Origin: Promethearchaeota archaeon
GTDB lineage: Archaea; Asgardarchaeota; Lokiarchaeia; Sigyniarchaeales; SOKP01
Direction: 5' to 3'
Assembly: GCA_016926735.1 (NCBI GenBank)
Contig: JAFGOA010000213.1
Location: 1 to 18,237, forward strand
Length of the DNA stretch: 18,237 bases
A model generated the notes under the pieces. It worked only from the letters and a program-made list of their open reading frames with translations, searched no databases and was not told where the DNA came from. A program made the translations under genes and the position numbers. Shown here piece by piece: positions 2,718-18,172 of the stretch; within the stretch, counting starts at the first letter, position 1; every line of letters starts with the position of its first letter.

Positions 2718-4541
2718 ATGATAGGGAAAAAAAATTTAATATTATTATCAACAATTAGCGTTATTTTAATTGGAACAACCAGTATTTTATTAATATTCTT
2801 TCTTGATTCTCCAAATCCGTATAATGGTCCGAATAGAGCACCAGTTCTAACTTTATATAACCCTTCTTCTTCAATAACAATAGAAGAATCTGAATTATTA
2901 CAATTATATGTAAATGTTTCTGATCCAGATGGAGATCTTCTATCGTATGAATGGGAATTGAATGATACTTATATTGATTGTGATTTAAACATCTATAATT
3001 TTTTACCAAGCGTGTTTTCTGCAGGTATATATACATTTCATGTTAATGTTTCTGATGGAGAGTATTTTGTAGAACATTCTTGGATTATTACTGTAAAACA
3101 TATACCCCATATGGTTAAAGATATTTGGCCCGGGTATTATAATGATTCATATCCTAAAGAATTGAATATATTAAATGGAGTTCTTTATTTTTTTGCAAAT
3201 GATGGTCAAAATGGAAGAGAGTTATGGAAGTCAAATGGTACATTAGAAGGTACTTATATGGTAAAGGATATTAATCCAACGGGCTCATCAATTTTAGGAA
3301 GTGAAATTGAAACTATTATTTTCAAAAATAACCTCTATTTTCAAGCAGATAATGGCGTTAATGGTGTAGAATTATGGAGATCAGACGGTACAGAAGGAGG
3401 GACCTATATGATTAAGGATATAAATAATGGTTCAAGTGGTTCTTATCCTGAATTATTTAAAGAATTTAATGGAAATCTCTATTTTAAAGCATCCAATAAT
3501 ACTATGGGTCGAGAATTGTGGAGGACAAACGGTACAGAAGCAGGTACTTACTTGATAAAAGACATATATCCTGGAACAAATCCATCAAATATCGATTTAT
3601 TTATCGAATGTAATAATTCTCTTTACTTTACTGCAAATAATGGTATTAATGGAACAGAATTATGGTGTACGAATGGTACAACCGAGGGAACGTATATAGT
3701 AAAAGATATTTTTGGCGGTCCAAATGATTCTAATCCTTCTGAATTTATTGTTTTAAATGAGATTCTTTACTTTAGTGCAGATAATGGCATAAATGGAGTG
3801 GAATTATGGAGATCAAATGGTACAGAAGAGGGTACTTATATGGTAAAAGATATTGATAGTGGTTCAGATGATTCAAATCCCTCTCAATTCATTAAATATA
3901 ATGAGATATTAATTTTTCAAATAAAGCCTAGTTTTAGGACTGAATTATGGAGGACAAACGGTACAGAAGAAGGAACCTATAGGATAACAAATACATTTGT
4001 TCAAGCAAGTGATTCTTATCTTGAATATTTTATAGAATATAATGGAATTATTTATTTTAGCGCAGAAAATGGAATAAATGGAACAGAATTATGGAGAACT
4101 GATGGTACTGAGATAGGGACATTTATAATAAAAGATATTAATCCAGGAACAGGAAATTCTAACCCAGAAAGATTTGTAGAATATAATGAACGTCTATATT
4201 TCTGTGCTGAAGACGTACAATACAATCATGAATTATGGACTACAAATGGTACTAAGGAAGGAACCTATAAGGTAAAAGAGGTGAATACTCGTACTTCAAG
4301 TGATGGGTCATATCCGGGTAATTACATTGAAATAAATGGAATTCTTTATTATACGGCAACAGATGGTTATAATGGTTTTGAGTTATTTAGAACAGATGGA
4401 TCAGAAGCCGGTACTTACATGATTAAAGATATATGGCCAGGATCAGGAAACTCAATCCCTGAATCTATGATTGAATTAAATGGACTTCTTTTTTTCGTTG
4501 CTGAAGATGGTGTTCATGGTGTAGAATTATGGTATTTCTAA
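2718..4541 (+). CDS. Membrane-anchored ELWxxDGT-repeat (beta-propeller) surface protein with an N-terminal Ig-like domain
   Basis: N-terminal hydrophobic helix, an NRAP...VSDPDGD.LSYEW...VNVSDG Ig/cadherin-like domain, then about ten ~48-aa repeats of ELW(R/K)(S/T)(D/N)GTxxGTYxxKDI. Confidence 0.9.
   Translation: MIGKKNLILLSTISVILIGTTSILLIFFLDSPNPYNGPNRAPVLTLYNPSSSITIEESELLQLYVNVSDPDGDLLSYEWELNDTYIDCDLNIYNFLPSVFSAGIYTFHVNVSDGEYFVEHSWIITVKHIPHMVKDIWPGYYNDSYPKELNILNGVLYFFANDGQNGRELWKSNGTLEGTYMVKDINPTGSSILGSEIETIIFKNNLYFQADNGVNGVELWRSDGTEGGTYMIKDINNGSSGSYPELFKEFNGNLYFKASNNTMGRELWRTNGTEAGTYLIKDIYPGTNPSNIDLFIECNNSLYFTANNGINGTELWCTNGTTEGTYIVKDIFGGPNDSNPSEFIVLNEILYFSADNGINGVELWRSNGTEEGTYMVKDIDSGSDDSNPSQFIKYNEILIFQIKPSFRTELWRTNGTEEGTYRITNTFVQASDSYLEYFIEYNGIIYFSAENGINGTELWRTDGTEIGTFIIKDINPGTGNSNPERFVEYNERLYFCAEDVQYNHELWTTNGTKEGTYKVKEVNTRTSSDGSYPGNYIEINGILYYTATDGYNGFELFRTDGSEAGTYMIKDIWPGSGNSIPESMIELNGLLFFVAEDGVHGVELWYF
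3205..4538 (+). repeat. Tandem coding repeats (~144-150 bp unit) of the ELWxxDGT protein
   Basis: Recurring gaattatgga...ggtacagaag...aaagatat DNA and ELWxxxGT peptide motifs. Confidence 0.8.
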
Positions 4542-5802: not shown

Positions 5803-5841
5803 TAGTCGTAAAATAACTTTTTTGCAAAACACGTTCTTATA
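5803..5841 (+). repeat. Core-only copy of the dispersed intergenic element (11-6-11 core TAGTCGTAAAA-TAACTT-TTTTGCAAAAC plus tail)
   Basis: 5805-5841 aligns ungapped to 11524-11560 at 27/37 by manual count. The ATGGAAAA boxes are absent. Confidence 0.45.
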
Positions 5842-6015
5842 CGCGATAACTACTATATAATTAAGAAATTAGAAGTAAGATAAATAAAAAATAGATTTTA
5901 TCTAAGAGATTAATAGATATAGGTAAATTATAAAAAATATAGGTTTTATTAACCTATAATTTTTAACATATGGAGATTTTACTTTACTTAATATATTTTA
6001 AGAGATTTTGAATTA

Positions 6016-7680
6016 TTAAAGATCTACTATATTTAGTCGCCAATAATCATCAAATTTTTTTAGAATATCTAGAGAAAATTGAAGTTTAATTCCATTAAGC
6101 TCCATTTCATATTTATTAATCTCATTATCACTGATTAAAAAATTAATTTGATACTTGTTAGATTCCTCGAAATTTGAATAATATATCCCAAAATAATAAT
6201 AAAATAAGATAATTGAATTTGGATCAATCTGAAATTCTGTACTTTTTGTTAGAAGTTTTGTACGAGGACCCCATGAATGTGATTTAACATCTAGAGTAGT
6301 ATGGATATTATTTTGAATAAGATAACCTTTTACGGTAGTTAATCTGTTGGGATTAAATTGTGAATTAAGGTAAAATGTTTTTGTTTTATTTGTCCTATTA
6401 TGAATTAGGTTTAAAACTATAAGTGGATATTCTGCAGTAGACGATCTATAATAGTTATTATTACTTCCATAAAAAAAGTCTTTTTTAGGACAAAGTTCTA
6501 TAAATAATTCAAGATCGTTAAAAAAAAAGCTTTTTCTGTTGCCATTTTTAATCTCATCTAATTTCCTTTTGGGATGGTTTTGAAAAGATGTAAAGATCTC
6601 ATCTTGAGACATACCTTCTCCATTTCCTACAATTAGTTGTAAGATATGTCTAGGAATACCTTCTTGTTTAACTACTTTAATTAAATTTCTTGATAAGATT
6701 AATCTTGATTTTAGAAATCCTTTTTTAGAGTATATGATACCTTCTCTTAACTTCCATTCCATAAAATTAATCATAACAAGATTGAACCATAATCCACAAT
6801 TATCAAGTGGTCCTATTATTATAATTTCCTTTTTAGGAGTAATTATTTTTAAACTATCTTTTCCTTGATGTTTTTTTATGGATTTATTTATGAGAAAGGT
6901 TTCTACTTTAAAGTTTTTATAAAAATTTATAGTTTTTTTATTTCCCTCCTTTACTATAACAATTCCATTCTCTGTTAAATGAATTATTGAATTATTTTCA
7001 ATTTTTTGATTATTTAAAACTTTCAATCCATCCTTTAGAACCATTATTGATCCCCAAATGAGAATTATTAAAAATAATCCAACAATAGTTATATATCCTC
7101 CAACAATGTTATTTTCTTCACCAAATAAAACCGTTAAATAGAATGATAGCCAAATATGAAATAAAAATAATAATATAAAAACCATATTTTGATAAATTAA
7201 TCTCTTTTTTCTTAGGGAAAGTTTATTTTGTTTTTCAATAGAGAGTAGAATTTCACCAGTGTTTCTAAGGTTTAATTTTCTATATATATAATTTATATTA
7301 CTCTCATTATCTCTATAATTATGGAGTATAGAATCAAATAAATGATTATTACTAAAGTTTTGTAGCTCAATTCTTATAGTTTCTTCTTTATCATTCCTTT
7401 TTATCGTAATTATTAAGAAATAGCTTTTAAATGTTTTAAAACTTGAAAAACTATAATGATGGCTCAAAATAGAACTATATTTTAGCCTCTGAAAAGAATA
7501 TTTATATTTAGAACAGCTCTTATCATATATAGCTTTATTATAATATATTGCTTCATTTGTTAAAAAGAGATTATGTCCCTTTTCATCATTTGTAAAAAAT
7601 AATATCTTTTCCTCTTTAGGAACTTTATCGAAAATATTTTTTCTCTCTATTTTTGATCCTAATTCCATATTTTTCACCAA
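6016..7680 (-). CDS. Hypothetical membrane protein (2 central TM helices, possible PH-like domains)
   Basis: 554-aa ORF with two TM helices at about aa 165-215. LFLTNEAIYY and IHLTENGIVI resemble bPH-like strands (weak). The start may be the ATG at 7668. Confidence 0.7.
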   Translation of the reverse strand: MVKNMELGSKIERKNIFDKVPKEEKILFFTNDEKGHNLFLTNEAIYYNKAIYDKSCSKYKYSFQRLKYSSILSHHYSFSSFKTFKSYFLIITIKRNDKEETIRIELQNFSNNHLFDSILHNYRDNESNINYIYRKLNLRNTGEILLSIEKQNKLSLRKKRLIYQNMVFILLFLFHIWLSFYLTVLFGEENNIVGGYITIVGLFLIILIWGSIMVLKDGLKVLNNQKIENNSIIHLTENGIVIVKEGNKKTINFYKNFKVETFLINKSIKKHQGKDSLKIITPKKEIIIIGPLDNCGLWFNLVMINFMEWKLREGIIYSKKGFLKSRLILSRNLIKVVKQEGIPRHILQLIVGNGEGMSQDEIFTSFQNHPKRKLDEIKNGNRKSFFFNDLELFIELCPKKDFFYGSNNNYYRSSTAEYPLIVLNLIHNRTNKTKTFYLNSQFNPNRLTTVKGYLIQNNIHTTLDVKSHSWGPRTKLLTKSTEFQIDPNSIILFYYYFGIYYSNFEESNKYQINFLISDNEINKYEMELNGIKLQFSLDILKKFDDYWRLNIVDL

Positions 7681-7883
7681 TTTAATTTATATTCTTTTTA
7701 GGTATAAATATTTATTTTTTTTTGATTTTTAGCAATAGATAGAATCTAAGATTAATTAAAAATAAGTATAATTTAGGAATCCTATCTGATTATTATCTTA
7801 AATTTTTGCTTGATTTATAATTAGTAGGAGATAAATAAAGATTTAAGGAAGAAAAAATAAAAAAATAAAAAATAGGTAAAAGT

Positions 7884-7948
7884 CTTTTTCCATGGAAAAA
7901 TGGAATATTTTAATGGAAAATTAAAGTGAAAGTTGGGTTTACAAAAAT
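7884..7948 (+). repeat. Dispersed intergenic element, copy 1
   Basis: CTTTTTCCATGGAAAAA-TGGA-ATATTTTAATGGAAAA followed by TTAAAGTGAAA-GTTGGG-TTTACAAAAAT. Confidence 0.8.
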
Positions 7949-8181
7949 TAACAATAATACTAAATTGATTCTCTAAATGATCAAATTTAAAGACTATAAT
8001 TATTGAAGAGGCATATTATAATTTATTTAGAAATAATCATGTTTCAATGCGTAATCCTCATTCTACTACTCGTAATTTGGTATACAAAAAGAATAAAAAA
8101 ATAAAATATAATTTAAGTTATACAAAAAGTTCCACAATTTTCCTTTTACCAATCTAATATCCCTTTAAGAAATAAAAATTA

Positions 8182-9633
8182 TTAGCCTTTCACACCTTTA
8201 ACGATTCGGTCGCCAATATCCTTATCAATATTGTGCCAGTATTCAAAGGCTCGTTGTAGCACGGATTCAGATACACCATTTTTTAAATGTCCCACTACAT
8301 TGGACACTAACCTATCGCGCTCTATATCATTCATGACTTTGCGTACCAGAGTGCCGGGCTGTCCGAAATCATCGTCTTCTTTACGCTTGGTATACGCGGA
8401 ACGGATAAAATCGCCGCTGGCATTCCAAATGGTCATCTCAGGATATTTCTCAGGGTCAGCCTTGGGACCACCCTTTGAGTTAGGTGCATAGACTGGATCG
8501 GAGATATTGTTAATTCTCATCGCTCCACCTTTACTATAGCTATGTACTGATACTTTGGGGCGGTTGACAGGAATCTGCTTATAATTAACCCCTAAGCGAG
8601 CCCGATGGGCGTCAGCGTAGGAGACTAGGCGGGCGAGTAACATCTTATCTGGGCTTGGACCGATTCCAGGAACAAGGTTGTTTGGTTCGAATGCCGCTTG
8701 CTCAATCTCAGCATGAAAATCGCTTGGATTACGATTCAGAATCAGTTGACCCACTTCAAGCAAAGGATAGTCTCCGTGGGGCCACACTTTAGTCAGATCA
8801 AAGGGATTGAATCGGTATGTCTCGGCCTCTTTGAATGGCATGATCTGAACTTTTAGGGTCCAACTGGGGTAATCCCCCCGCTTGATCGCATCGAACAGAT
8901 CTCGACGGTGGTAGTCGGCATCAACACCGGCAATCCGATCGCCCTCTTCTTGGGTTAGGAAGGCGATGCCTTGGTTTGTCTTGAAGTGATACTTCACCCA
9001 GTAGCGCTCACCTTTAGCATTGACCCACATATAGGTGTGGCTCGAGTAACCATTCATGTGCCGATAGCTCTTGGGGATTCCACGATCGCTCATCAAAATG
9101 GTGACTTGATGGGCCGACTCAGGTGAAAGTGTCCAGAAGTCCCATTGCATATCATTATCGCGTAGACCACTTTCTGCACGGCGCTTCTGGGAGTGGATGA
9201 AGTGCTGGAACTTCATAGGGTCACGTATGAAAAAAACAGGGGTGTTGTTTCCTACCATGTCATAATTACCCTCTGTGGTGTAAAACTTAAGTGCAAAGCC
9301 CCGCACATCTCGCCAAGTATCTGGACTACCGCTTTCTCCGGCTACGGTGGAAAAACGAGCTAGTAAATCGGTCTTCATACCTGGTTGGAACACGGCTGCT
9401 TTTGTATAAGCGCTGATATCCTTAGTCACCTCAAAATATCCAAAAGCCCCGGAACCCTTTGCGTGGGGTTGGCGGTCGGGAATCATTTCTCGGTTAAAGT
9501 TGGCCATCTGCTCCATCAAGTAGTGGTCTTGAAGTAGAATTGGGCCATCAGGTCCCACCGTAAGAGAGAATTCATCGCTGGCTACCGGGATCCCAGCATC
9601 TGTTGTTGTAGGTTTATTTTCGTCTTTTTTCAT
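8182..9633 (-). CDS. katA: Monofunctional heme catalase (small-subunit type)
   Basis: Active-site [60 protein letters not shown], and the proximal-Tyr motif [14 protein letters not shown]. Confidence 0.97.
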
Positions 9634-9920
9634 AGTTATAATTTCCTTATATTTATTATTATGTATCCATTCTAATATAATTCTATATAAATATATCGAT
9701 TATGATTAATTATTTATTCTTTTAACAGGAGATTGTTATTCTAAATAATCAAATATGGATTATTGAATAATATTTTCTGTCCACTTAAAATCCGTTAATC
9801 CTAAACAATTGAGAGTTTTCATACTAAACATATTTCATTAAGTAAATGAAAAATATATTGGTTAATTGAATTCAGAATTAATAAAGAATAAGAAAAAATT
9901 AGATAATTTTATGAAGATCA

Positions 9921-9935
9921 TGACTATGATTGTCA
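9921..9935. promoter_or_regulatory. 7-1-7 imperfect palindrome TGACTAT-G-ATTGTCA (Fur/PerR-box-like), upstream of catalase
   Basis: Three mismatches to the bacterial Fur 7-1-7 box TGATAAT-N-ATTATCA. It lies between the DPS-like gene and catalase. Confidence 0.25.
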
Positions 9936-10017
9936 TATGATATTCTATTACATCTAATGAGTAATTAAAAGTGGTTTCTGATATTTTAAATATTTGATTT
10001 TAATTCTAGTTATTTCT

Positions 10018-10506
10018 TTACTTACTTAAGTTTATATCGTTGAGTAAATCTTCCAAATCTTGTTCGTGTTCAACCTCATCTTCCATTATCTTTCTAATCA
10101 TGTTCATAGTAATTGAATCCTTTCCAATAATCTTATCCAAAATCTTTTTATATGCCATAATAGCACATTGTTCACCTTCAATATTCTGTTTCAATAACTC
10201 AACAGTATTGGAATTTGAAGGAGTTTTATAACCACAACCACTTTTTTCTAACAAATCTTTTGGATGGAGGAGAGGTGTTCCACCTAATTGAACGATACGA
10301 TCAGCAAGCATATTGGCGTGTTTTAGTTCATCATTTTGGTGTTCTTCAAGTTCTTTTACTATATTTGGCCTCATTCGACCTTCAGCAATTTTGGCACCGA
10401 CCCAATATTGATAGACAGCTAACCATTCATCAGCAAGTGCTTCATTTAACAAATCAATTAACTCATTAAGATCCATACCAACTATCTTTCTTCCAATAGT
10501 TCCCAT
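10018..10506 (-). CDS. DPS-like ferritin-superfamily protein (DPSL/thioferritin type)
   Basis: LNEALADEWLAVYQYW...ELEEHQNDELKHANMLADRIVQLGGTP...GCGY...EQCAI...DEVEHEQDL gives di-iron ligands plus a Cys pair. The likely start is ATG 10506 (MGTIGRKIVG); the ORF track extends it to 10527. Confidence 0.9.
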   Translation of the reverse strand: MGTIGRKIVGMDLNELIDLLNEALADEWLAVYQYWVGAKIAEGRMRPNIVKELEEHQNDELKHANMLADRIVQLGGTPLLHPKDLLEKSGCGYKTPSNSNTVELLKQNIEGEQCAIMAYKKILDKIIGKDSITMNMIRKIMEDEVEHEQDLEDLLNDINLSK

Positions 10507-10906
10507 AGTAAATTTATATATTTTCAATATTATTTATAGTTTTTTTTTATTTTTATAAATAAATAGTAAGAATAATACTAGAATTAAAGAGCAAAAACAT
10601 GAGAGAACTTATTTTCTAAAACTATAGGATTATATATCAATATCTTAAAGATAAAACTAAAATTATTAAATTACAATATAATTTTTTCAGGAAAAATAAT
10701 AGTTTATTCAAATGAAGGATAAGTATTATCTATTATAACAAACTCAACTATATCATTTATGTTTCCTATTCTACTGAAGATAGACTTTCAAGTGTATTAG
10801 TTCTATAAATTTATAAATTGTTAAACGGGAGGTTGAATATGCTCGAATTAATTAATTGAGAAATAAATTCTTTCAACATAGTAAAATTAATTTCTATTAA
10901 TATTAA

Positions 10907-11335
10907 TTATTCATGGTTTTTTGCTCTTATTAAAGCCACATGTATCGAAACAATTACTGCAATTATAATCAATAAAATTCGGATCCAAAGTATTTGAACT
11001 ATTATAATTGAAATTATCATGGTTATCCACAATAATGAGATTGTATAAATCCTTATTTTTATTGGAAGCCCTTTCCCTTCTCGAAAATCTTTTATATATT
11101 TTCCAAATATTTTATTATTTATAATCCAATTATAAGCTTTTTCCGAACTTCTGATATAACACGCTGCTGCTAAAAGTAGAAATGGTGTAGTAGGAAGAAT
11201 TGGTATTACAATACCTATTATCCCTAAAGCCAAACATACACTACCTGCAATATAAAATAATAATCGTTTTAGTTTACTTTTTGATAAGAATTCTTGGTTA
11301 AAATCACTTTTTCTTGAATTTGAATTTTCAGACAT
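10907..11335 (-). CDS. ybaN: YbaN/DUF454 family membrane protein
   Basis: Signature LGIIGIVIPILPTTPFLLLAAACYIRSS...W...FGKYI. Confidence 0.92.
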   Translation of the reverse strand: MSENSNSRKSDFNQEFLSKSKLKRLLFYIAGSVCLALGIIGIVIPILPTTPFLLLAAACYIRSSEKAYNWIINNKIFGKYIKDFREGKGLPIKIRIYTISLLWITMIISIIIVQILWIRILLIIIAVIVSIHVALIRAKNHE

Positions 11336-11485
11336 TATATATCTAAATTATATTGTTATAAAATAAATTACTCCTAATTTAGGTTATTACCATATAACTT
11401 TATTAATATCTTTTAGGATATTATAATTTTTAAAATATTGTTATATTACAACACTATAATTAATTTATGATCACTTTAAATAAAA

Positions 11486-11549
11486 CTTTTTTCTATGGAA
11501 AAGCTATATTTTAATGGAAAATGGATGCAAAATTACTGTTATGCAAAAG
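11486..11549 (+). repeat. Dispersed intergenic element, copy 2
   Basis: CTTTTTTCTATGGAAAA-GCT-ATATTTTAATGGAAAA followed by TGGATGCAAAA-TTACTG-TTATGCAAAAG. Confidence 0.8.
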
Positions 11550-11747
11550 GCGTTTTTAGAAACAATAAGCTCTATTTTATTAAAGATTGTGAAGATTAAA
11601 ATAACTAACCGAAAAGATTATCAAAATTGCTTTATCCCTAAATTTTATATGAAAGATATATAGGTATTTAACTACATTTTTTAAGATTTATAGAGAATTT
11701 TCATTACTTGAAATATTTATTCTTTTTTTGTTTATTATATTTAAAAA

Positions 11748-12122
11748 ATGAAGAAAAATTTTCTTTCCTTATATGAGAAAAATCATATAATCAAAAATGA
11801 TGAAAGATTTGAGTTATTTAACGAAATAAATAAAAAATATAATATAAAGAAAGTATTATATCCAGGAAGTTATGCACATATAACTCCTATTTTCGTATTT
11901 CCGTTAGTTATTTTTAATAACATCTATACGAAACTTCAAGAGTACTATGTTTTAGAAGAAATTAAAAATTATATTAATAAAAGAAAAATATATTCAAATC
12001 AACCTACTATTCATAAATATGCAGATTATAATAAATCTTGGTGCTGTGGACTTTTTTGTTCTTTTTCAATAACCTTTATATTCCTATCTATTATTATTTA
12101 TAATTTCACTTTTCTCCTATGA
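11748..12122 (+). pseudogene. Probably truncated conserved hypothetical protein (methyltransferase-like VLYPGS motif)
   Basis: The first ~97 aa look like a real domain (ERFELF...VLYPGSYAHITP..FP). The sequence then changes abruptly to a low-complexity hydrophobic tail ending in TGA, whereas the other credible genes end in TAA. Confidence 0.5.
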
Positions 12123-12168
12123 AATAAAGGAAGATTTAAATAAGATTCTAACTGATAATATCATAGTC

Positions 12169-12193
12169 ATTTCATATAGTAGTTATATGAAAT
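12169..12193. promoter_or_regulatory. Perfect 10-5-10 inverted repeat upstream of the GH5 gene (operator candidate)
   Basis: ATTTCATATA-GTAGT-TATATGAAAT, ending 56 bp before the ATG at 12250. Confidence 0.4.
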
Positions 12194-12249
12194 AATTTAT
12201 ACTTTTTTTATATTCAAAAGTAAATATTTCTGTAAAAAAGGTAAATAAA

Positions 12250-14889
12250 ATGTTAAAAATTATAAATAATAGATTTAAAAGACTAACACTTTTTATAGTT
12301 TTATTCTGGGGATTAATATTTAGTGCTATTTTACCATTTATCAATATACCTAATAATTATAATTCAAATGAAACGGAACTTAAATATGGAGCTGAAAAAA
12401 TTGTTGATAAATACGGAAGATTACAGGTTTACGGTTCTCATGTATGCTCAGAAACTGGAGAGCAAATTACTCTTGGTGGAATGAGCTTTTTCTGGAGTCA
12501 GTGGGCACCAGATTATTATACCGCCGATGTTGTTGATTATTTAGTTGATATCATGAAGGTTTCGGTCGTTAGAGCCGCATATGGAGTGGAGGAAGATATG
12601 GGTCCATCTGATACAGTAGAAGAAATAGAAACAGTTGTTGAAGCAGCAATAGATCGAGGTATCTATGTAATTATTGATTTTCATGGTGAAGGAAATCTCC
12701 TTCCATATGAGAGTTATGCGAGACAATTTTTCGGAGATATGGCCCAAAAATATGGTAATACACCAAATGTTATATATGAATTATATAATGAGCCAACGTC
12801 GCAATCAACTACGGAAATTCAACAATATTGTCAAAATGTTGCTAATGAAATTAGACGATATGATCCTGACAACTTAATTTTATGTGGATCACACGAATGG
12901 TCACAACATCCTGATTCTTATACAATAACAGACTCTAATGCAGCATATACTTTCCATGGGTACCCCGATACCTATGGAGGTCATTTACAGAATTTTTATA
13001 ATAATGTTGGGGCGGCTATGGATGCAGGTAGTGCAGTATGGGTAACAGAATTTGGAGGAAATGGTGACCAAACTAGCGCCACTGAGGAAATGATAAATGC
13101 ATGTCAAGACATGGGTATTAGTATGTGTGCATGGTCAGTACATCATAAAGATGAGGTTTGGTCAATATTTGCACCTAATGTGTTTATGGGACCATTAACG
13201 TCTTGGGGAAATTATTTGAAAGCCAAATTTGAAAATTGGCCCGGAGGGAAAACATACGATTATTATTTACTTACATCAACAATTGGGGGAGGTAGCGTAA
13301 CACGTTCAGGTGGCTATCAAAGTGGAGAAATTGCAACTGTAGAAGCAACCGCTGATAAATATTGGACATTTGATCATTGGGAAGGTGATCTCAGCGGGAG
13401 TCAAAATCCTGCGACTATTACAATGAATTCTGATAAATCAATCACTGCAGTATTCACTGGTGGTCCAGATTATTATTTAACTACAGCAATATCTGGGCTA
13501 GGTAGCGTATCTCCATCTTCAAGTGGCTATTTAAGTGGAGAAATTGCAACTGTAGAAGCAATACCTTCTACTGGTTGGACATTTGATCATTGGGAAGGTG
13601 ATCTCAGCGGGAGTCAAAATCCTGCGACTGTTTCAATGGATTCTGATAAGTTTGCCTATGCAATATTCACTGGCGGTCCACAAACTGACAATTTAGCGGC
13701 ATTTAAATTAACAAAAGAGTCTTCAGCTGAATTTAGTACGGCAAGCGCTGCTCAAGCTGTTGATTTAGACGATACAACACGTTGGTCATCTCTATGGAGT
13801 GTTCCTCAATGGATTTATGTTGATCTTGTAAATACTTATATTATTAATCAAGTCGTCATAAGTTGGGAAGATGCTTATGCAAATCAATATCAAATTCAAG
13901 TTTCAGATGATGCAACTAGCTGGACTACAGTTTATACAGAATCCGGTGGAAATGGAGGTATAGTTACCATCTCATTCACACCAACTCCTGCTAGATATGT
14001 TCGTTTGTATTGCACTGCCAAAGCAACTGAATGGGGAATCTCAGTTTGGGAATTTGAAGTCTATGGAGAGGAACCTCGTGATTGTTATTTAACTACAGCA
14101 GTATCTGGGCTAGGTAGCGTATCTCCATCTTCAGGTGGTTATGATTTTGGAGACATTGAAACTATACAAGCAATACCTTCTTCTGGTTGGACATTTGATC
14201 ATTGGGAAGGTGATATCAGCGGGAGTCAAAATCCTGTGACTATTACAATGGATTCTGATAAGTTTATCTATGCAATATTCACTGGTGGTCCACAAACTGA
14301 TAATTTAGCGGCATATAAAGCAGTTTTCGTGTCTTCAATTGAAGGTGAAAATTTTATCGGTTCTAATGCCGTTGATATGAACGCTGGTACACGTTGGGCA
14401 TCTGCATTTAATGAACCTGAGTGGATTTATATTGATCTTGTAGATAATTATAATATTAATCAAGTCGTTCTAAATTGGGAATCTGCTTATGCAACAGCCT
14501 ATGAAATTCAAGTTTCAGATGATGCAACTAGTTGGAGTACAGTTTATTCCACAACCAATGGAGATGGAGGTTTAGATTCCATCTCATTCACACCGACTAG
14601 TACTAGATATGTTTGTATGTATGGAATTACTCGAGCACTTCAATACGGATTCTCACTTTATGAATTTGAAGTTTATGGAGAAGCATCTGAGTTTCAAAAT
14701 GGTGATGTTAATCATGATGGTAATGTAGATATTATTGATGCATTATTGATCGCACAATACTATGTAGGTTTAAATCCTCAACCATTTTATCCCGAACAAG
14801 CTGATGTAAATCATGATGGAACTATAAATATTGTGGATGCTTTACTTGTCGCTCAAGCATATGTAGGGTTAATAGACTTACCACCATAA
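12250..14889 (+). CDS. Secreted modular glycoside hydrolase: GH5 (cellulase-like), 3 InlB-B-type repeats, 2 F5/8 type C (CBM32) domains and a C-terminal dockerin
   Basis: N-terminal TM/signal; GMSFFWS, IYVIIDFH, IYELYNEP (acid/base Glu) and VWVTEFG (nucleophile Glu); three WTFDHWEGD.SGSQNP repeats; two AVD...TRW.S...WIY.DL...EFEVYG domains; twin DVNHDG..NI.DALL.AQ.YVG calcium loops. Confidence 0.93.
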   Translation: MLKIINNRFKRLTLFIVLFWGLIFSAILPFINIPNNYNSNETELKYGAEKIVDKYGRLQVYGSHVCSETGEQITLGGMSFFWSQWAPDYYTADVVDYLVDIMKVSVVRAAYGVEEDMGPSDTVEEIETVVEAAIDRGIYVIIDFHGEGNLLPYESYARQFFGDMAQKYGNTPNVIYELYNEPTSQSTTEIQQYCQNVANEIRRYDPDNLILCGSHEWSQHPDSYTITDSNAAYTFHGYPDTYGGHLQNFYNNVGAAMDAGSAVWVTEFGGNGDQTSATEEMINACQDMGISMCAWSVHHKDEVWSIFAPNVFMGPLTSWGNYLKAKFENWPGGKTYDYYLLTSTIGGGSVTRSGGYQSGEIATVEATADKYWTFDHWEGDLSGSQNPATITMNSDKSITAVFTGGPDYYLTTAISGLGSVSPSSSGYLSGEIATVEAIPSTGWTFDHWEGDLSGSQNPATVSMDSDKFAYAIFTGGPQTDNLAAFKLTKESSAEFSTASAAQAVDLDDTTRWSSLWSVPQWIYVDLVNTYIINQVVISWEDAYANQYQIQVSDDATSWTTVYTESGGNGGIVTISFTPTPARYVRLYCTAKATEWGISVWEFEVYGEEPRDCYLTTAVSGLGSVSPSSGGYDFGDIETIQAIPSSGWTFDHWEGDISGSQNPVTITMDSDKFIYAIFTGGPQTDNLAAYKAVFVSSIEGENFIGSNAVDMNAGTRWASAFNEPEWIYIDLVDNYNINQVVLNWESAYATAYEIQVSDDATSWSTVYSTTNGDGGLDSISFTPTSTRYVCMYGITRALQYGFSLYEFEVYGEASEFQNGDVNHDGNVDIIDALLIAQYYVGLNPQPFYPEQADVNHDGTINIVDALLVAQAYVGLIDLPP
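13258..14682 (+). repeat. Intragenic duplications in the GH5 gene (210-bp and 612-bp offsets)
   Basis: Near-identical DNA blocks (e.g. tggacatttgatcattgggaaggtgat.tcagcgggagtcaaaatcctg) in units starting ~13258, 13468 and 14080. Confidence 0.85.
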
Positions 14890-14934
14890 AAAACAATTAT
14901 AATACAATAAAAATCCCAAAAAATAGCTAAAAAC

Positions 14935-14950
14935 TTTTTTTTTTTATTTT
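14935..14950 (+). terminator. Oligo-T tract terminator candidate
   Basis: T11 run about 45 bp after the GH5 stop. Confidence 0.4.
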
Positions 14951-15069
14951 AAACTATAAGACAATATTAAATAATTCGAATTCTAAGAATATTATATTTA
15001 ATATTATTATAAACTAAAATTTTTAAACCTCTATCTAATAAATTAGAATTATTTAGATTTAGAAAAAAT

Positions 15070-15134
15070 CTTTTTCTATGGAAAAACTGAATATTTTAAT
15101 GGAAATGGAAATCAAAAAGTGCGTATTCCTAATC
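15070..15134 (+). repeat. Dispersed intergenic element, copy 3
   Basis: CTTTTTCTATGGAAAAA-CTGA-ATATTTTAATGGAAAT followed by GGAAATCAAAA-AGTGCG-TATTCCTAATC (degenerate core). Confidence 0.8.
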
Positions 15135-15335
15135 TCCTTCTAACAGGAAAATCCTCTCATATCATAAAAGTATAAGAATTTTTATAATTTCTAAAGAAAA
15201 GGATTAATTCCATTATCAAATCTTTGAAATCTTATAAAAATTTATATTCTTCCAACAGATTTTTTATTTAAATATAATGATAAGATAAAATATGCATAGT
15301 TTTAATAATTCCTATAAAAACAAATATTGATAAAA

Positions 15336-15503
15336 ATGAACAAGACAAATTTAAAAATTCAAAATTTAGAGATAGAGAATACTGAAGAATTCATGAAAAT
15401 AAGAAAATCATGGGAATATCCATTGAAAAGAAGGGAATTTTTACCAAAACCAGAAAAGAATATGATGAAATCATATTGTAATGAAAGAATTCAAGGTCAA
15501 TGA
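15336..15503 (+). CDS. Possible small ORF or gene remnant (55 aa)
   Basis: Manual translation MNKTNLKIQNLEIENTEEFMKIRKSWEYPLKRREFLPKPEKNMMKSYCNERIQGQ*. Purine-rich, coding-like composition; below the ORF track cutoff. Confidence 0.25.
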   Translation: MNKTNLKIQNLEIENTEEFMKIRKSWEYPLKRREFLPKPEKNMMKSYCNERIQGQ

Positions 15504-15588
15504 GTATATAACACTCAAACCAGAAGGTAAAATTATTAAAATCAAGACTTATTAATTTACAGATATAGACGATTTTATAGTTATTAAG

Positions 15589-16965
15589 ATGAGGAAATCA
15601 CGCTCAAAAAAAGCAATCAAAAAGATTGGAATAGGATTTCTGATGTTAGGAATTGTTATTATGAGCTTCCAATTAGCATTGATGTTCCAAAAGAAAAGAA
15701 TTAATGATAAAGAGATACCAAAAGAATTTATTGGTTATTTTATTGATGGTGAAAATGGAAATGATACAAATCCAGGAACTTTTGAATTACCATGGAAGAC
15801 TATTACAAAAGCAGCTAATACTTTAGTCGCAAATGATACGGTTTACATAAAGTCAGGGATTTATAATGAGAGAATTGTTCCAAATAACTCTGGAAGCTCT
15901 GGAAAGTATATTACATATACCGCTTATCCTGGTGATATTGTAACTATTGATGGTACGGGTATGTCTTTTGGATATACTCAAGGATTAGTTCATATAGAGA
16001 ATATAAATTATATCAAAATTTTAGGATTAAGAATTGAAAACTCTGTATATACAGGAATTCAAGTGAGAGGAAATTGTGATCATATAATAATTAAAGATAA
16101 TTATGTATATAAAAGTCAATGTAGTGGTATCCATGTTCATGATAATTATCGGACTTGTAAGATAACTAACCTAACTATTGATGGGAATGAAATTTCAAAT
16201 ACAAATAATAATAGCAATCAAGAGGCAATTTCACTTGAGGGATTTGTGGATACATTCGAAATAAAAAATAATTACATCCATGATATACTTGGTAATAAAG
16301 AGGGGATCGATGTAAAGTGTGGTGGTTCAAATGGTAGGATCTATGAAAATTTAATACATAATGCATGGGTCGGTATTTATATTGATGCTTTTAATGAATT
16401 CAACAATAATATTAAAATCTTCAGAAATTTTGTTTATGATAATCTAGATGGTATAACTATAGCGACTGAAAGTGGTGGTAGTATTGAAAATATTACTATT
16501 TGTAACAATATTGTATTCAATAATAATAGGAGTGGTTGTGCAATCGAACGATATGACACTCCTGGAACACATTTCAAAAAAAATATTATAGTAATAAATA
16601 ATATCTTTTGGAATAATAAATGGGGTTTTTTCCTTGTAGAAAATAAAACTAGAATTGAAAATTTTGTAATAAGAAATAATATTATAAGTGATCATTTAAG
16701 GGGAATTTATTTTAGTAAATACGATATGGAAGATGTTACTATAATAGATCATAATTTGTTTTATAATTCAATCAATATTTATGGTGATTATGCTGTTCAT
16801 GGAGACCCTAAATTTGTTAATCCCTATGGTTTGGATTTTCATCTCCTACCAGATTCACCAGCAATAAACGCTGGTTCATCTAATTACGCACCTATAGAAG
16901 ATTTTGATGGAATTCCCCGACCTCAAGGGATTATATATGATATCGGAGCATATGAATATTGGTAA
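15589..16965 (+). CDS. Membrane-anchored right-handed parallel beta-helix protein (DUF1565 / pectate-lyase-like fold, choice-of-anchor-Q-like C-terminus)
   Basis: N-terminal TM; GNDTNPGT..PWKTI.KAA...DTVYIKSGIYNE; many I.I.NN.I repeats; C-terminal DPKFV...DFHL..DSPAINAG...DFDG.PRPQG...DIGAYE. Confidence 0.88.
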   Translation: MRKSRSKKAIKKIGIGFLMLGIVIMSFQLALMFQKKRINDKEIPKEFIGYFIDGENGNDTNPGTFELPWKTITKAANTLVANDTVYIKSGIYNERIVPNNSGSSGKYITYTAYPGDIVTIDGTGMSFGYTQGLVHIENINYIKILGLRIENSVYTGIQVRGNCDHIIIKDNYVYKSQCSGIHVHDNYRTCKITNLTIDGNEISNTNNNSNQEAISLEGFVDTFEIKNNYIHDILGNKEGIDVKCGGSNGRIYENLIHNAWVGIYIDAFNEFNNNIKIFRNFVYDNLDGITIATESGGSIENITICNNIVFNNNRSGCAIERYDTPGTHFKKNIIVINNIFWNNKWGFFLVENKTRIENFVIRNNIISDHLRGIYFSKYDMEDVTIIDHNLFYNSINIYGDYAVHGDPKFVNPYGLDFHLLPDSPAINAGSSNYAPIEDFDGIPRPQGIIYDIGAYEYW

Positions 16966-17015
16966 AAATATTATAATTCAATATTTAGAGAATTTAAAAA
17001 TTATTAAAATCTTCA

Positions 17016-17078
17016 CTTTCTATGGAAAAGTTGGATAATCTAATGGAAAATCTTCGTGAAACCTCTATTTCACGCATT
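17016..17078 (+). repeat. Dispersed intergenic element, copy 4
   Basis: CTTTCTATGGAAAAG-TTGG-ATAATCTAATGGAAAA followed by TCTTCGTGAAA-CCTCTA-TTTCACGCATT. The arms contain a perfect CGTGAAA/TTTCACG inverted repeat around a 6-bp spacer. Confidence 0.75.
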
Positions 17079-17158: not shown

Positions 17159-17629
17159 TTAATTAAAGTTTTCATCGTAAGTTATGGCATATTTTTGAGT
17201 AAATTCTGATTTATATAGTCCAATTTTATTATTTATATTTTGATATCCTATTTCTATATCTATTTCAAAAATAATTTGATCTCCATGTTCTAAATTTTGT
17301 CCATACAAGGGATGATTTTGATAATCATTGTTTCCTCCCATAATTAATCCATTTAATGACTCTTCAGTATCAAATTCAATTTGGAAACTTACTGGTTGAT
17401 TTTTATTCCAATATTTTAATGTTTGGTTAAAATCTACTCCTAATCGAGCTTGTGTTGGATTAATATCACTTATTTGGAAATAGTTTGTAACTTCTGGATC
17501 TTCTGAACTGAGTAAATTTCTGAAAAAAAATATACTTCTTGCAATAAAATTGACTGGTGTAGGTATTTTAATAAGACCTGCAAGGAAAGCATAAACCATA
17601 TAAGCAATGTTCCAAAAGATATTATTCAT
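17159..17629 (-). CDS. Hypothetical protein or 3' fragment of a larger gene
   Basis: Protein-like sequence from MNNIFW... to TAA, followed by a T-tract on the minus strand (17136-17153). The track's extension to 17701 overlaps the + strand repeat frame and is probably not real. Confidence 0.5.
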   Translation of the reverse strand: MNNIFWNIAYMVYAFLAGLIKIPTPVNFIARSIFFFRNLLSSEDPEVTNYFQISDINPTQARLGVDFNQTLKYWNKNQPVSFQIEFDTEESLNGLIMGGNNDYQNHPLYGQNLEHGDQIIFEIDIEIGYQNINNKIGLYKSEFTQKYAITYDENFN

Positions 17630-18172
17630 GTTATTTGGCAAGATTCCACTCAAGGAATATGGGGATCTGATATGGAAATTATATATATCTTCTACAATCA
17701 ATCGATTGGATGGTCTAATATAACCATTATTTCAGATGATTTAACTAATTGGAATGATGGATTAAGTTTTCGATCAGATATATATATTGATTTTCAAAAT
17801 AATTTACATATTGTATGGGTAGATGGTACAGATGGACTATAGGGTACTGATCAAGAAATCATGTATATATCCTTCCTTCAAGATTCAGGATGGTCAAATG
17901 TTACAATAATCTCTGATGATAATAATAGGTGGAATAATGATATAAATGAGAATCCAGATATCGCAATTGATAATACAGGTAAACCACATATAGTATGGAG
18001 TGATAGAACAAATAGTTCATAGGGTTATGATCCGGAAATAATGTATAATTATGTTTCTAAGATTAAAACTAATAATAGAATCTCTTTAGGTATAGATTTC
18101 ATATTTATTATGATTGTTACATTTATGGGATTATTGGTTTATATAAGAAAAAGCTATAAATTCCTAGACTAA
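17624..18172 (+). pseudogene. 5'-truncated 60-aa-repeat (beta-propeller-like) surface protein with a C-terminal TM anchor, interrupted by two in-frame TAG codons
   Basis: Manual translation: IHVIWQDSTQGIWGSDMEIIY...GWSNITIISDD..WND...LHIVWVDGTDGL*GTDQEIMY...GWSNVTIISDD..WNN...PDIAID..GKPHIVWSDRTNSS*GYDPEIMY...IFIMIVTFMGLLVYIRKSYKFLD, then TAA and a long T-tract. Confidence 0.85.

Follow-up and report, generated by a model that had tools for sequence, protein, structure and literature searches.

Compound sites with a dif-like core delimit a probable array of mobile gene cassettes in a Lokiarchaeia genome

The integron, with its integrase IntI and its attC sites, is the only cassette platform published for archaea (PMC9668308). 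The other described system that bears on this work is Xer/dif recombination: XerA of P. abyssi recombines dif in vitro without partner proteins (PMC2958812, PMC3646895), and its cleavage positions are the borders of the 6-nt spacer (PMC3646895). Here we describe a repeated intergenic element in an 18,237-nt stretch of DNA from Promethearchaeota archaeon (Lokiarchaeia; assembly GCA_016926735.1, contig JAFGOA010000213.1). This stretch, referred to as the window, is one entire contig of the source genome (G000), a metagenome-assembled genome (MAG) of 3.88 Mb in 238 contigs with 26% GC and 99% completeness. We conclude that the repeats probably serve as att-type junction sites in a chromosomal array of mobile gene cassettes. 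No published description of these sites was found in the literature searched, the coverage of which was incomplete.

A search for two ATGGAAA boxes 10-18 nt apart gave exactly four matches in the window, at 7892, 11495, 15078 and 17022, all on the plus strand. The chance expectation was 0.01, and none of 200 shuffles contained four or more. These are the four same-strand, intergenic copies reported in an initial annotation made from the sequence alone, and the box-to-box distances given there (21, 19, 21 and 21 nt) were reproduced. On the open reading frame (ORF) map, all four copies lie between genes, which are arranged around copies 1 to 4 as tandem minus, divergent, tandem plus and convergent; placement regardless of the direction of the flanking genes is thus as previously stated. 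The site structure needed correction. The two boxes are real but are only the accessory part of the site, and the annotation missed a dif-like arm-spacer-arm core downstream of them. Its array of four copies also overlooked a fifth, box-less site at 5807-5826.

We drew the anatomy of the site from 72 copies. Box 1 is TTTTCCATGGAAAA, in which the ATGGAAAA part is at least 90% conserved and the preceding two bases are variable. It is separated by 8 weakly conserved bases (S1) from box 2, TTTTAATGGAAAA, which is at least 90% conserved over its full length. After the boxes comes an 11-nt arm ending in TGCAAAA or GTGAAA and then a 6-nt spacer, which is TAACTG in 38 of the 72 copies; the conserved element, from box 1 through the end of this spacer, spans about 62 nt. 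Many copies continue with an inverted right arm, TTTTGCA or TTTCACG. The resulting core, CGTGAAA/TGCAAAA-N6-TTTCACG/TTTTGCA, is organized, as arm-spacer-arm, like a dif-type tyrosine-recombinase core. Two fully inverted arms (7 of 7 bases complementary) surround the 6-bp spacer in 23 of the 72 copies, an arrangement seen in copy 4, and hybrids of the two arm types are common. Across all copies, arm pairing reached 4.89 of 7 complementary bases, compared with 4.45 ± 0.11 when partners were shuffled, and perfect pairing spans 7-8 bp rather than 11. Since only one base separates the TGGAAAA motif of the boxes from the TGCAAAA motif of the arm, the whole element may be viewed as a tandem series of three half-sites, spaced 21 and 11 nt, to which a spacer and one half-site in inverted orientation are joined.

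To place these sites in a wider context, we compared 41 genomes of the order: G000, the MAGs of three sister species of the same genus (G001, G002 and G003), and 37 others of the family or order. The two-box pattern matched 19, 35, 6 and 18 times in the four genus genomes and 0-2 times in each of the 37 others, where the matches were mostly chance-like. The boxed family is restricted to this one genus, and a profile derived from its copies recovered approximately 28 in G000. The palindromic core has a broader range, with CGTGAAA-N6-TTTCACG present in 29 of the 41 genomes, up to 14 times each, and a reversed-pattern control giving 0. Five full palindromes and dozens of half-sites occur in G000, and several palindromes with an identical spacer recur in two species of the genus.

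Boxed copies cluster on short accessory contigs, and contig ends often fall at or near a copy. Among 38 neighboring pairs, 35 have the same orientation and 3 the opposite, at spacings of 0.7-8.5 kb. Clustered and co-oriented in this way, the motif is not spread evenly through core regions, and in the contexts listed it keeps no regular distance or orientation relative to genes or their starts; either pattern would have spoken against the gene-capture system that the initial annotation had proposed. Between the sites we delimited 85 non-identical cassettes with a median length of 1351 bp, 65 of which hold one or two genes. Cassette genes run along the sites in 88 cases and against them in 81. 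The cargo between copies elsewhere includes toxin-antitoxin pairs, leucine-rich repeat (LRR) proteins and glycosidases.

Spacers tend to be shared within arrays. Neighboring sites agreed (one mismatch or fewer) in 23 of 38 pairs, against 13.2 ± 2.3 expected, and in 8 against 1.65 expected when TAACTG was excluded. Array-specific spacers are the pattern expected if exchange were to require spacer identity. A single spacer per array, as hub insertion predicts, was found in several arrays, but not in that of the window.

The half-site is not limited to boxed copies. G000 has two more site families that end in the same CGTGAAA plus spacer. One carries TTCATGAA boxes, with 22 exact matches in G000 and 43 copies in G000, loci of G001-G003 and metagenome contigs taken together; the other has a left side of the GATAATCAT type upstream of the arm. 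These sister families thus differ from the boxed family in the accessory sequence that precedes the arm (TTCATGAA boxes or GATAATCAT), the genus restriction having been measured for the boxed family, yet they share its half-site, and junctions of different families are mixed within one array. Seven cassettes lead from a box-less to a boxed site, four from a boxed to a box-less site, and two involve the third family. On contigs C222 and C1 of G000 (C numbers denote contigs of the named genome; L numbers, fetched stretches), we found two mirror-image arms, which in C222 surround a full palindrome.

We then asked where homology between copies begins and ends. Pairs of copies with a common left flank had unrelated right flanks in 9 of 9 cases, and pairs with a common right flank had unrelated left flanks in 7 of 8 (BLAST); in the eighth, G000:C161 and G001:C139, the left flank was common too. 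Entire cassettes are shared between species. G000:C85 (22597-24031) and G001:C192 match over 1434 of 1434 nt at 98.3% identity, with no similarity on either side. The upstream site of this cassette is boxed in G000 and is a box-less CGTGAAA-TAACTG in G001, which places the exchange within the few bases common to both site types. G003:C560 and G001:C103 share a full 1657-nt cassette (95.6%), and G001:C139 and G002:C268 share a 2.4-kb cassette (97.2% end to end by blastn; 98.3% by megablast from position 79). The upstream neighbor was unrelated in all six testable between-source cassette pairs (four MAG against MAG, one against a metagenome contig). Boxed and box-less sites with only about 9-13 nt in common have exchanged flanks exactly at the arm and spacer, cassette borders fall on the core within a few bases, and most mapped breakpoints lie in the arm-spacer-arm core about 20 nt downstream of the boxes. 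In a histogram of homology ends, left-flank matches end at the junction, 22 of 76 of them within 0-9 nt, whereas right-flank homologies continue through the conserved core, such that the histogram alone cannot place the crossover.

The modules of the window behave in the same way. In G003:C86, the catalase cassette lies between two such sites, next to an unrelated upstream neighbor and without the ferritin gene; homology with the window begins at 7877, and box 2, the arm and the spacer of copy 1 move with the cassette. The GH5 cassette recurs at 94% identity in metagenome contig L098, where it follows a PIN-toxin (VapC-like) gene and precedes a different leader; the upstream site and leader of L098 are also found in G001:C103. 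The beta-helix cassette is 95% identical to one in G003:C566 (L056). Synteny breakpoints in relatives thus coincide with the sites, as the initial annotation had proposed to check. Collectively, these comparisons indicate that cassettes have been exchanged between arrays and species with breakpoints at the core, and that box-less sites with the same arm and spacer join in the same exchanges. One candidate exchange was rejected: an apparent cassette swap between identical flanks in G001:C145 and metagenome contigs reduced to LRR-repeat copy number and Ns in an assembly. That LRR-protein cassette (L066, L102 and L105) differs in unit number between contigs that are otherwise identical, with Ns in one assembly.

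Relatives also define the limits of the array. In G003, site 0, the box-less site, likewise follows an orthologous 332-aa gene and is then followed by a wholly different five-gene cassette; synteny with the window, at 93% identity, stops at 5849. At the other end, the core of copy 4 and the 4 bases before it, a total of 24 nt, have an identical counterpart at G002:C130:10329-10348, where boxes and array are absent. The G002 site sits between the ABCE1 gene, which is also present in the window, and a homologue of the repeat protein to the right of copy 4. Because G002 shares the palindrome without the array and G003 shares site 0 after the orthologous gene, we place the array at 5807-17074, bounded on the left by conserved genes and on the right by a conserved chromosomal site, with copy 4 probably serving as the chromosomal anchor. 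Copy 3 reads as a hybrid, formed by the end of the GH5 cassette and the start of the beta-helix cassette. The five spacers of the array are all different and two right arms are degenerate, and the array is therefore probably old.

Flank shuffling, whole-cassette transfer, co-orientation and breakpoints at the core all favor the earlier suggestion of gene capture resembling that of integrons or dif modules. The 3' end of each cassette has two ATGGAAAA boxes 21 nt apart, the 11-nt arm (ending in TGCAAAA or GTGAAA) and the 6-nt spacer. The inverted arm (TTTTGCA or TTTCACG) opens the next cassette, and a conserved leader of about 200 nt often comes after it. In the mechanism we propose, the spacer borders would be cut by a tyrosine recombinase, for which the housekeeping XerA is the likeliest candidate. 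The boxes could be extra binding sites for the same enzyme, as their one-base difference from the TGCAAAA arm motif suggests, or sites for an accessory protein; either way they may make the cassette-borne side the strong side, comparable to DR1/DR2 in integron attI1 and to the accessory sequences of cer/psi. Cassettes would be excised as circles and reinserted where the spacer of a site matches.

Several observations weigh against this interpretation. A second class of breakpoints lies at S1, between the boxes, and is not explained by a single crossover at the spacer. Copy 1 and G003:C86, for example, have box 2, arm, spacer and cassette in common but differ in S1 and the left flank, and G001:C139 and G002:C268, despite 97.7% identity over 700 nt, have different bases at 5 of the 8 S1 positions. 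Branch migration from the core through the common boxes, or a second crossover site in the boxes, could produce such breaks. In G003:C566, copy 3 is gone together with its flanks (14954 to ~15488), and 58 unrelated bases connect the GH5 and beta-helix cassettes; this looks like a fusion of two cassettes and is not a clean site-level event. Many sites retain the left arm alone. In the window itself, the spacers all differ and copies 1 and 3 have no right arm; if spacer homology is strictly required, recombination among these sites would no longer be possible. Terminal overlaps of at least 20 nt, which would mark circles, were found in 0 of 291 sequences (all G000 contigs and the fetched stretches, some of them partial contigs). 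Finally, a recombinase on an unbinned element would escape a 238-contig MAG.

Which enzyme could act at these sites? By ORF map and Pfam, the window contains no recombinase gene, in agreement with the initial annotation, and none is linked to any array examined. G000 encodes one PF00589 protein, the sole tyrosine recombinase found, adjoining orc1/cdc6. It passes the XerA equivalog model (240 bits; cut-off, 220) and fails the integron-integrase model TIGR02249 (85.6 bits; cut-off, 265). No IS200-type or IS110-type transposase was found in the genome, and its three serine recombinases are IS607-like or Tn3-like. XerA is therefore the best candidate by elimination, and that it binds and cuts these sites is a prediction to which we give slightly less than an even chance. 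We consider it possible, if unlikely, that the same cassette system is instead served by a dedicated, non-XerA recombinase whose gene lies elsewhere, be it on a plasmid that was not binned, in a virus or in a region missing from the assembly. The lack of a linked recombinase and the presence of multi-copy sites with many spacers, unlike a single chromosomal dif, would fit such an enzyme; so would two further weak or partial PF00589 matches, in G001 and G002, beside the one strong match that each of G001-G003 has. However, G000 is nearly complete and has a single tyrosine recombinase, and the arm motif is kept across an order-level clade, which better fits a conserved housekeeping enzyme than diverse element-borne integrases.

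A less probable alternative is recombination of the sites as folded single-stranded DNA, as with attC or the attP of CTX phage: box 1 would pair with box 2 around an S1 loop, the arms would form a second hairpin, and one strand would be exchanged and resolved by replication. Canonical copies do fold, as single-stranded DNA, into two adjacent hairpins (z-scores of -2.4 to -6.0), S1 would be an unconstrained loop, and many sites keep one good arm. In contrast, the CC of box 1 changes to TC, TA or AC while the GG of box 2 remains about 90% conserved or more, with no covariation for the box hairpin; full complementarity of the arms is limited to 23 of 72 copies, with many hybrids among the rest; and for three of the four copies in the window, folding is no better than that of shuffled sequences. 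We did not adopt the box 1-box 2 hairpin, as it folds in canonical copies without compensating changes.

Ordinary homologous recombination between dispersed repeats could also make mosaics, and copies share 60-300 nt of similarity and break at two places, S1 and the spacer. This is a very improbable source of the pattern as a whole: it does not account for the swapping of flanks exactly at the arm and spacer between sites with so few bases in common, for cassette borders that keep to the core, for array-specific spacers or for near-universal co-orientation. The least likely reading takes the element for a small non-autonomous transposon with repeated insertions, or for a promoter or regulator-binding site in a stress regulon; although G003 lacks copy 3 and the flanks that it has in G000, and two direct boxes two helical turns apart resemble a transcription-factor site next to a first module of catalase and a Dps-like protein, the copies have no inverted ends, their left and right flanks belong to unrelated families that reassort, an outcome not expected of insertion at random targets, and they flank unrelated cargo in which genes face both ways, at no regular distance or orientation in the contexts listed. 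Two related candidates were rejected. A miniature inverted-repeat transposable element or insertion element would carry terminal inverted repeats, whereas the copies have none and lie between unrelated, reassorting flank families. A coding motif (MEK..ILME, read from the ATG) yields frames that end after 3-34 codons, with internal stops in several copies. Rfam covariance models had no match in the whole window at E ≤ 1.

The sites and cassettes of the window are listed in the table.

Table. Sites and cassettes of the window array, in order along the plus strand
Feature	Coordinates	Strand	Description
Site 0	5807..5826	+	Box-less core: arm CGTAAAA, spacer TAACTT, right arm TTTTGCA; junction after 5819; opens the array immediately past the conserved 332-aa gene
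Cassette 0	5820..7937		Leader-type start (5820 to ~5914); 554-aa gene 6016-7680, minus strand; 3' site, copy 1
Copy 1	7886..7937	+	Box 1 7886-7899; S1 (variable) 7900-7907; box 2 7908-7920; 11-nt arm 7921-7931 (ends AGTGAAA); spacer 7932-7937; right arm degenerate (TTTAC)
Cassette 1	7938..11538		Catalase 8182-9633, minus; Dps-like ferritin 10018-10527, minus; DUF454/YbaN 10907-11335, minus; 3' site, copy 2
Copy 2	11489..11545	+	Box 1 11489-11502; short S1 11503-11508; box 2 11509-11521; arm 11522-11532 (ends TGCAAAA); spacer TTACTG 11533-11538; right arm TTATGCA 11539-11545
Cassette 2	11539..15123		Conserved leader of ~200 nt; truncated 124-aa ORF 11748-12122; GH5 enzyme 12250-14889; conserved trailer ~14968-15071; 3' site, copy 3
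Copy 3	15072..15123	+	Intact boxes; degenerate arm ATCAAAA; spacer AGTGCG; no right arm
Cassette 3	15124..17067		Right-handed beta-helix protein 15589-16965; 3' site, copy 4
Copy 4	17016..17074	+	Boxes and full palindromic core CGTGAAA CCTCTA TTTCACG at 17055-17074

Pfam identified the cargo as a catalase, a ferritin/Dps-like protein, a DUF454 (YbaN family) protein, a GH5 cellulase and a beta-helix protein, in accordance with the modules first recognized (catalase, DPSL and YbaN; a truncated gene and GH5; the beta-helix protein). The 554-aa product of cassette 0 matched no known family in Pfam. The catalase region (8001-9500) has 43-49% GC, compared with 26% for the genome, and the nearest relatives of the protein, with 84-87% identity, are catalases from Desulfobacterota, Acidobacteriota, Planctomycetota and other Asgard MAGs, evidence that it was recently acquired from a foreign source. 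The domains of the archaeal GH5 enzyme include a type I dockerin, two F5/8 type C domains and InlB-type B repeats; paralogues of the dockerin segment (14695-14950), 70-78% identical to it, number in the dozens across all four genus genomes.

Two sequences recur at cassette ends. The leader (11539-11747 and 5820-5914), which begins TTTTGCAAAAC, is 74-87% conserved at the starts of many unrelated cassettes and follows boxed and box-less sites alike; it could serve the cassettes as a promoter or form the second half of a large att site. The stretch at 5777-5914 matches the starts of further cassettes in G001 and G003. In about 10 otherwise unrelated cassettes, the boxes are preceded by a conserved trailer of some 100 nt (14968-15071; also L071, L074, L059 and others). 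Outside the array, a gene just beyond its limits (2718-4541) contains eight repeats of 144-150 nt with a conserved Glu-Leu-Trp motif and is conserved in G001 and G003. On the right, the plus-strand frame at 17540-18100 encodes a repeat protein homologous to a 754-aa gene of G002. It has in-frame TAG codons at 17840 and 18020, both replacing the Trp of sister repeats (W-G-x-D-x-E-I), and may be a decaying gene with two TGG-to-TAG changes or something odder. Elsewhere in G000, a k-mer count revealed a sequence of about 25 nt containing GAACCAAAACATAAGATGTAT, with approximately 42 occurrences, which is probably a CRISPR repeat.

These results point to a different type of site, in a genome without an integron integrase, that arranges accessory genes as exchangeable modules, among them bacterial-type oxidative-stress genes, glycosidases and toxin-antitoxin pairs, with a core motif spread across the order. 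The sites provide a short motif that marks the flexible part of the genome, and they would explain why assemblies break there. If XerA is indeed the enzyme, a recombinase of chromosome maintenance doubles as a gene-capture engine. As a tentative extension, which we hold with more doubt than confidence, Lokiarchaeia may run an integron-like capture platform with the housekeeping XerA, in which chromosomal dif-like landing sites distinguished by their spacers accept circular cassettes. In this genus, the cassettes would carry a compound site of three tandem half-sites, the two boxes and the arm, that loads the enzyme on the cassette side, and the platform would bring in bacterial genes such as the catalase.

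Compared with integrons, the likeness lies in short, co-oriented sites (35 pairs against 3) that delimit mobile cassettes of one or two genes, each with its own 3' site and with unrelated neighbors in different contexts. Cassette order varies, the array is anchored at a fixed chromosomal point, and foreign genes are captured. In the integron attI1 site, the direct repeats DR1 and DR2 lie beside a simple site, a layout that resembles two boxes followed by an inverted-repeat site. The differences are equally clear. There is no IntI, the only tyrosine recombinase being the XerA equivalog. A consensus scan for R''/R' pairs of attC (RYYYAAC, GTTRRRY) found none at or near the five sites, and 4 matches elsewhere in the window, against 1.8 ± 1.4 in shuffled sequence. 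The folds here are two short hairpins, rather than the imperfect attC hairpin of 50-140 nt with its extrahelical bases, and with 88 genes in one direction and 81 in the other, the cassettes do not follow a common-promoter logic.

Xer/dif systems, including chromosomal dif, integrative mobile elements exploiting Xer (IMEX) and the pdif/dif modules of Acinetobacter, share with these sites the inverted arms, their A/T-rich inner ends and the 6-bp spacer. They also share modules that have no recombinase of their own and are bounded by sites, and a housekeeping Xer-family enzyme is the sole candidate here. However, the orientation of pdif sites alternates, whereas sites here are direct repeats within an arm of the array and inverted only across a central complete site. 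Chromosomal dif is a single terminus site, in contrast to 5 palindromes in G000 and up to 14 in relatives, with many spacers. The sites described here also have a one-sided pair of boxes attached and often keep only one arm. In this respect they recall the accessory sequences of cer/psi and the arm sites of lambda-type systems, where extra protein-binding sequence on one side of a simple core imposes direction and selectivity, although the extra sequence here is about 35 nt long and consists of two repeats that resemble the core arm. With no IntI and no attC, and with direct sites present many times per chromosome, the system lies outside the definitions of both integrons and dif-module islands, yet it works like either one.

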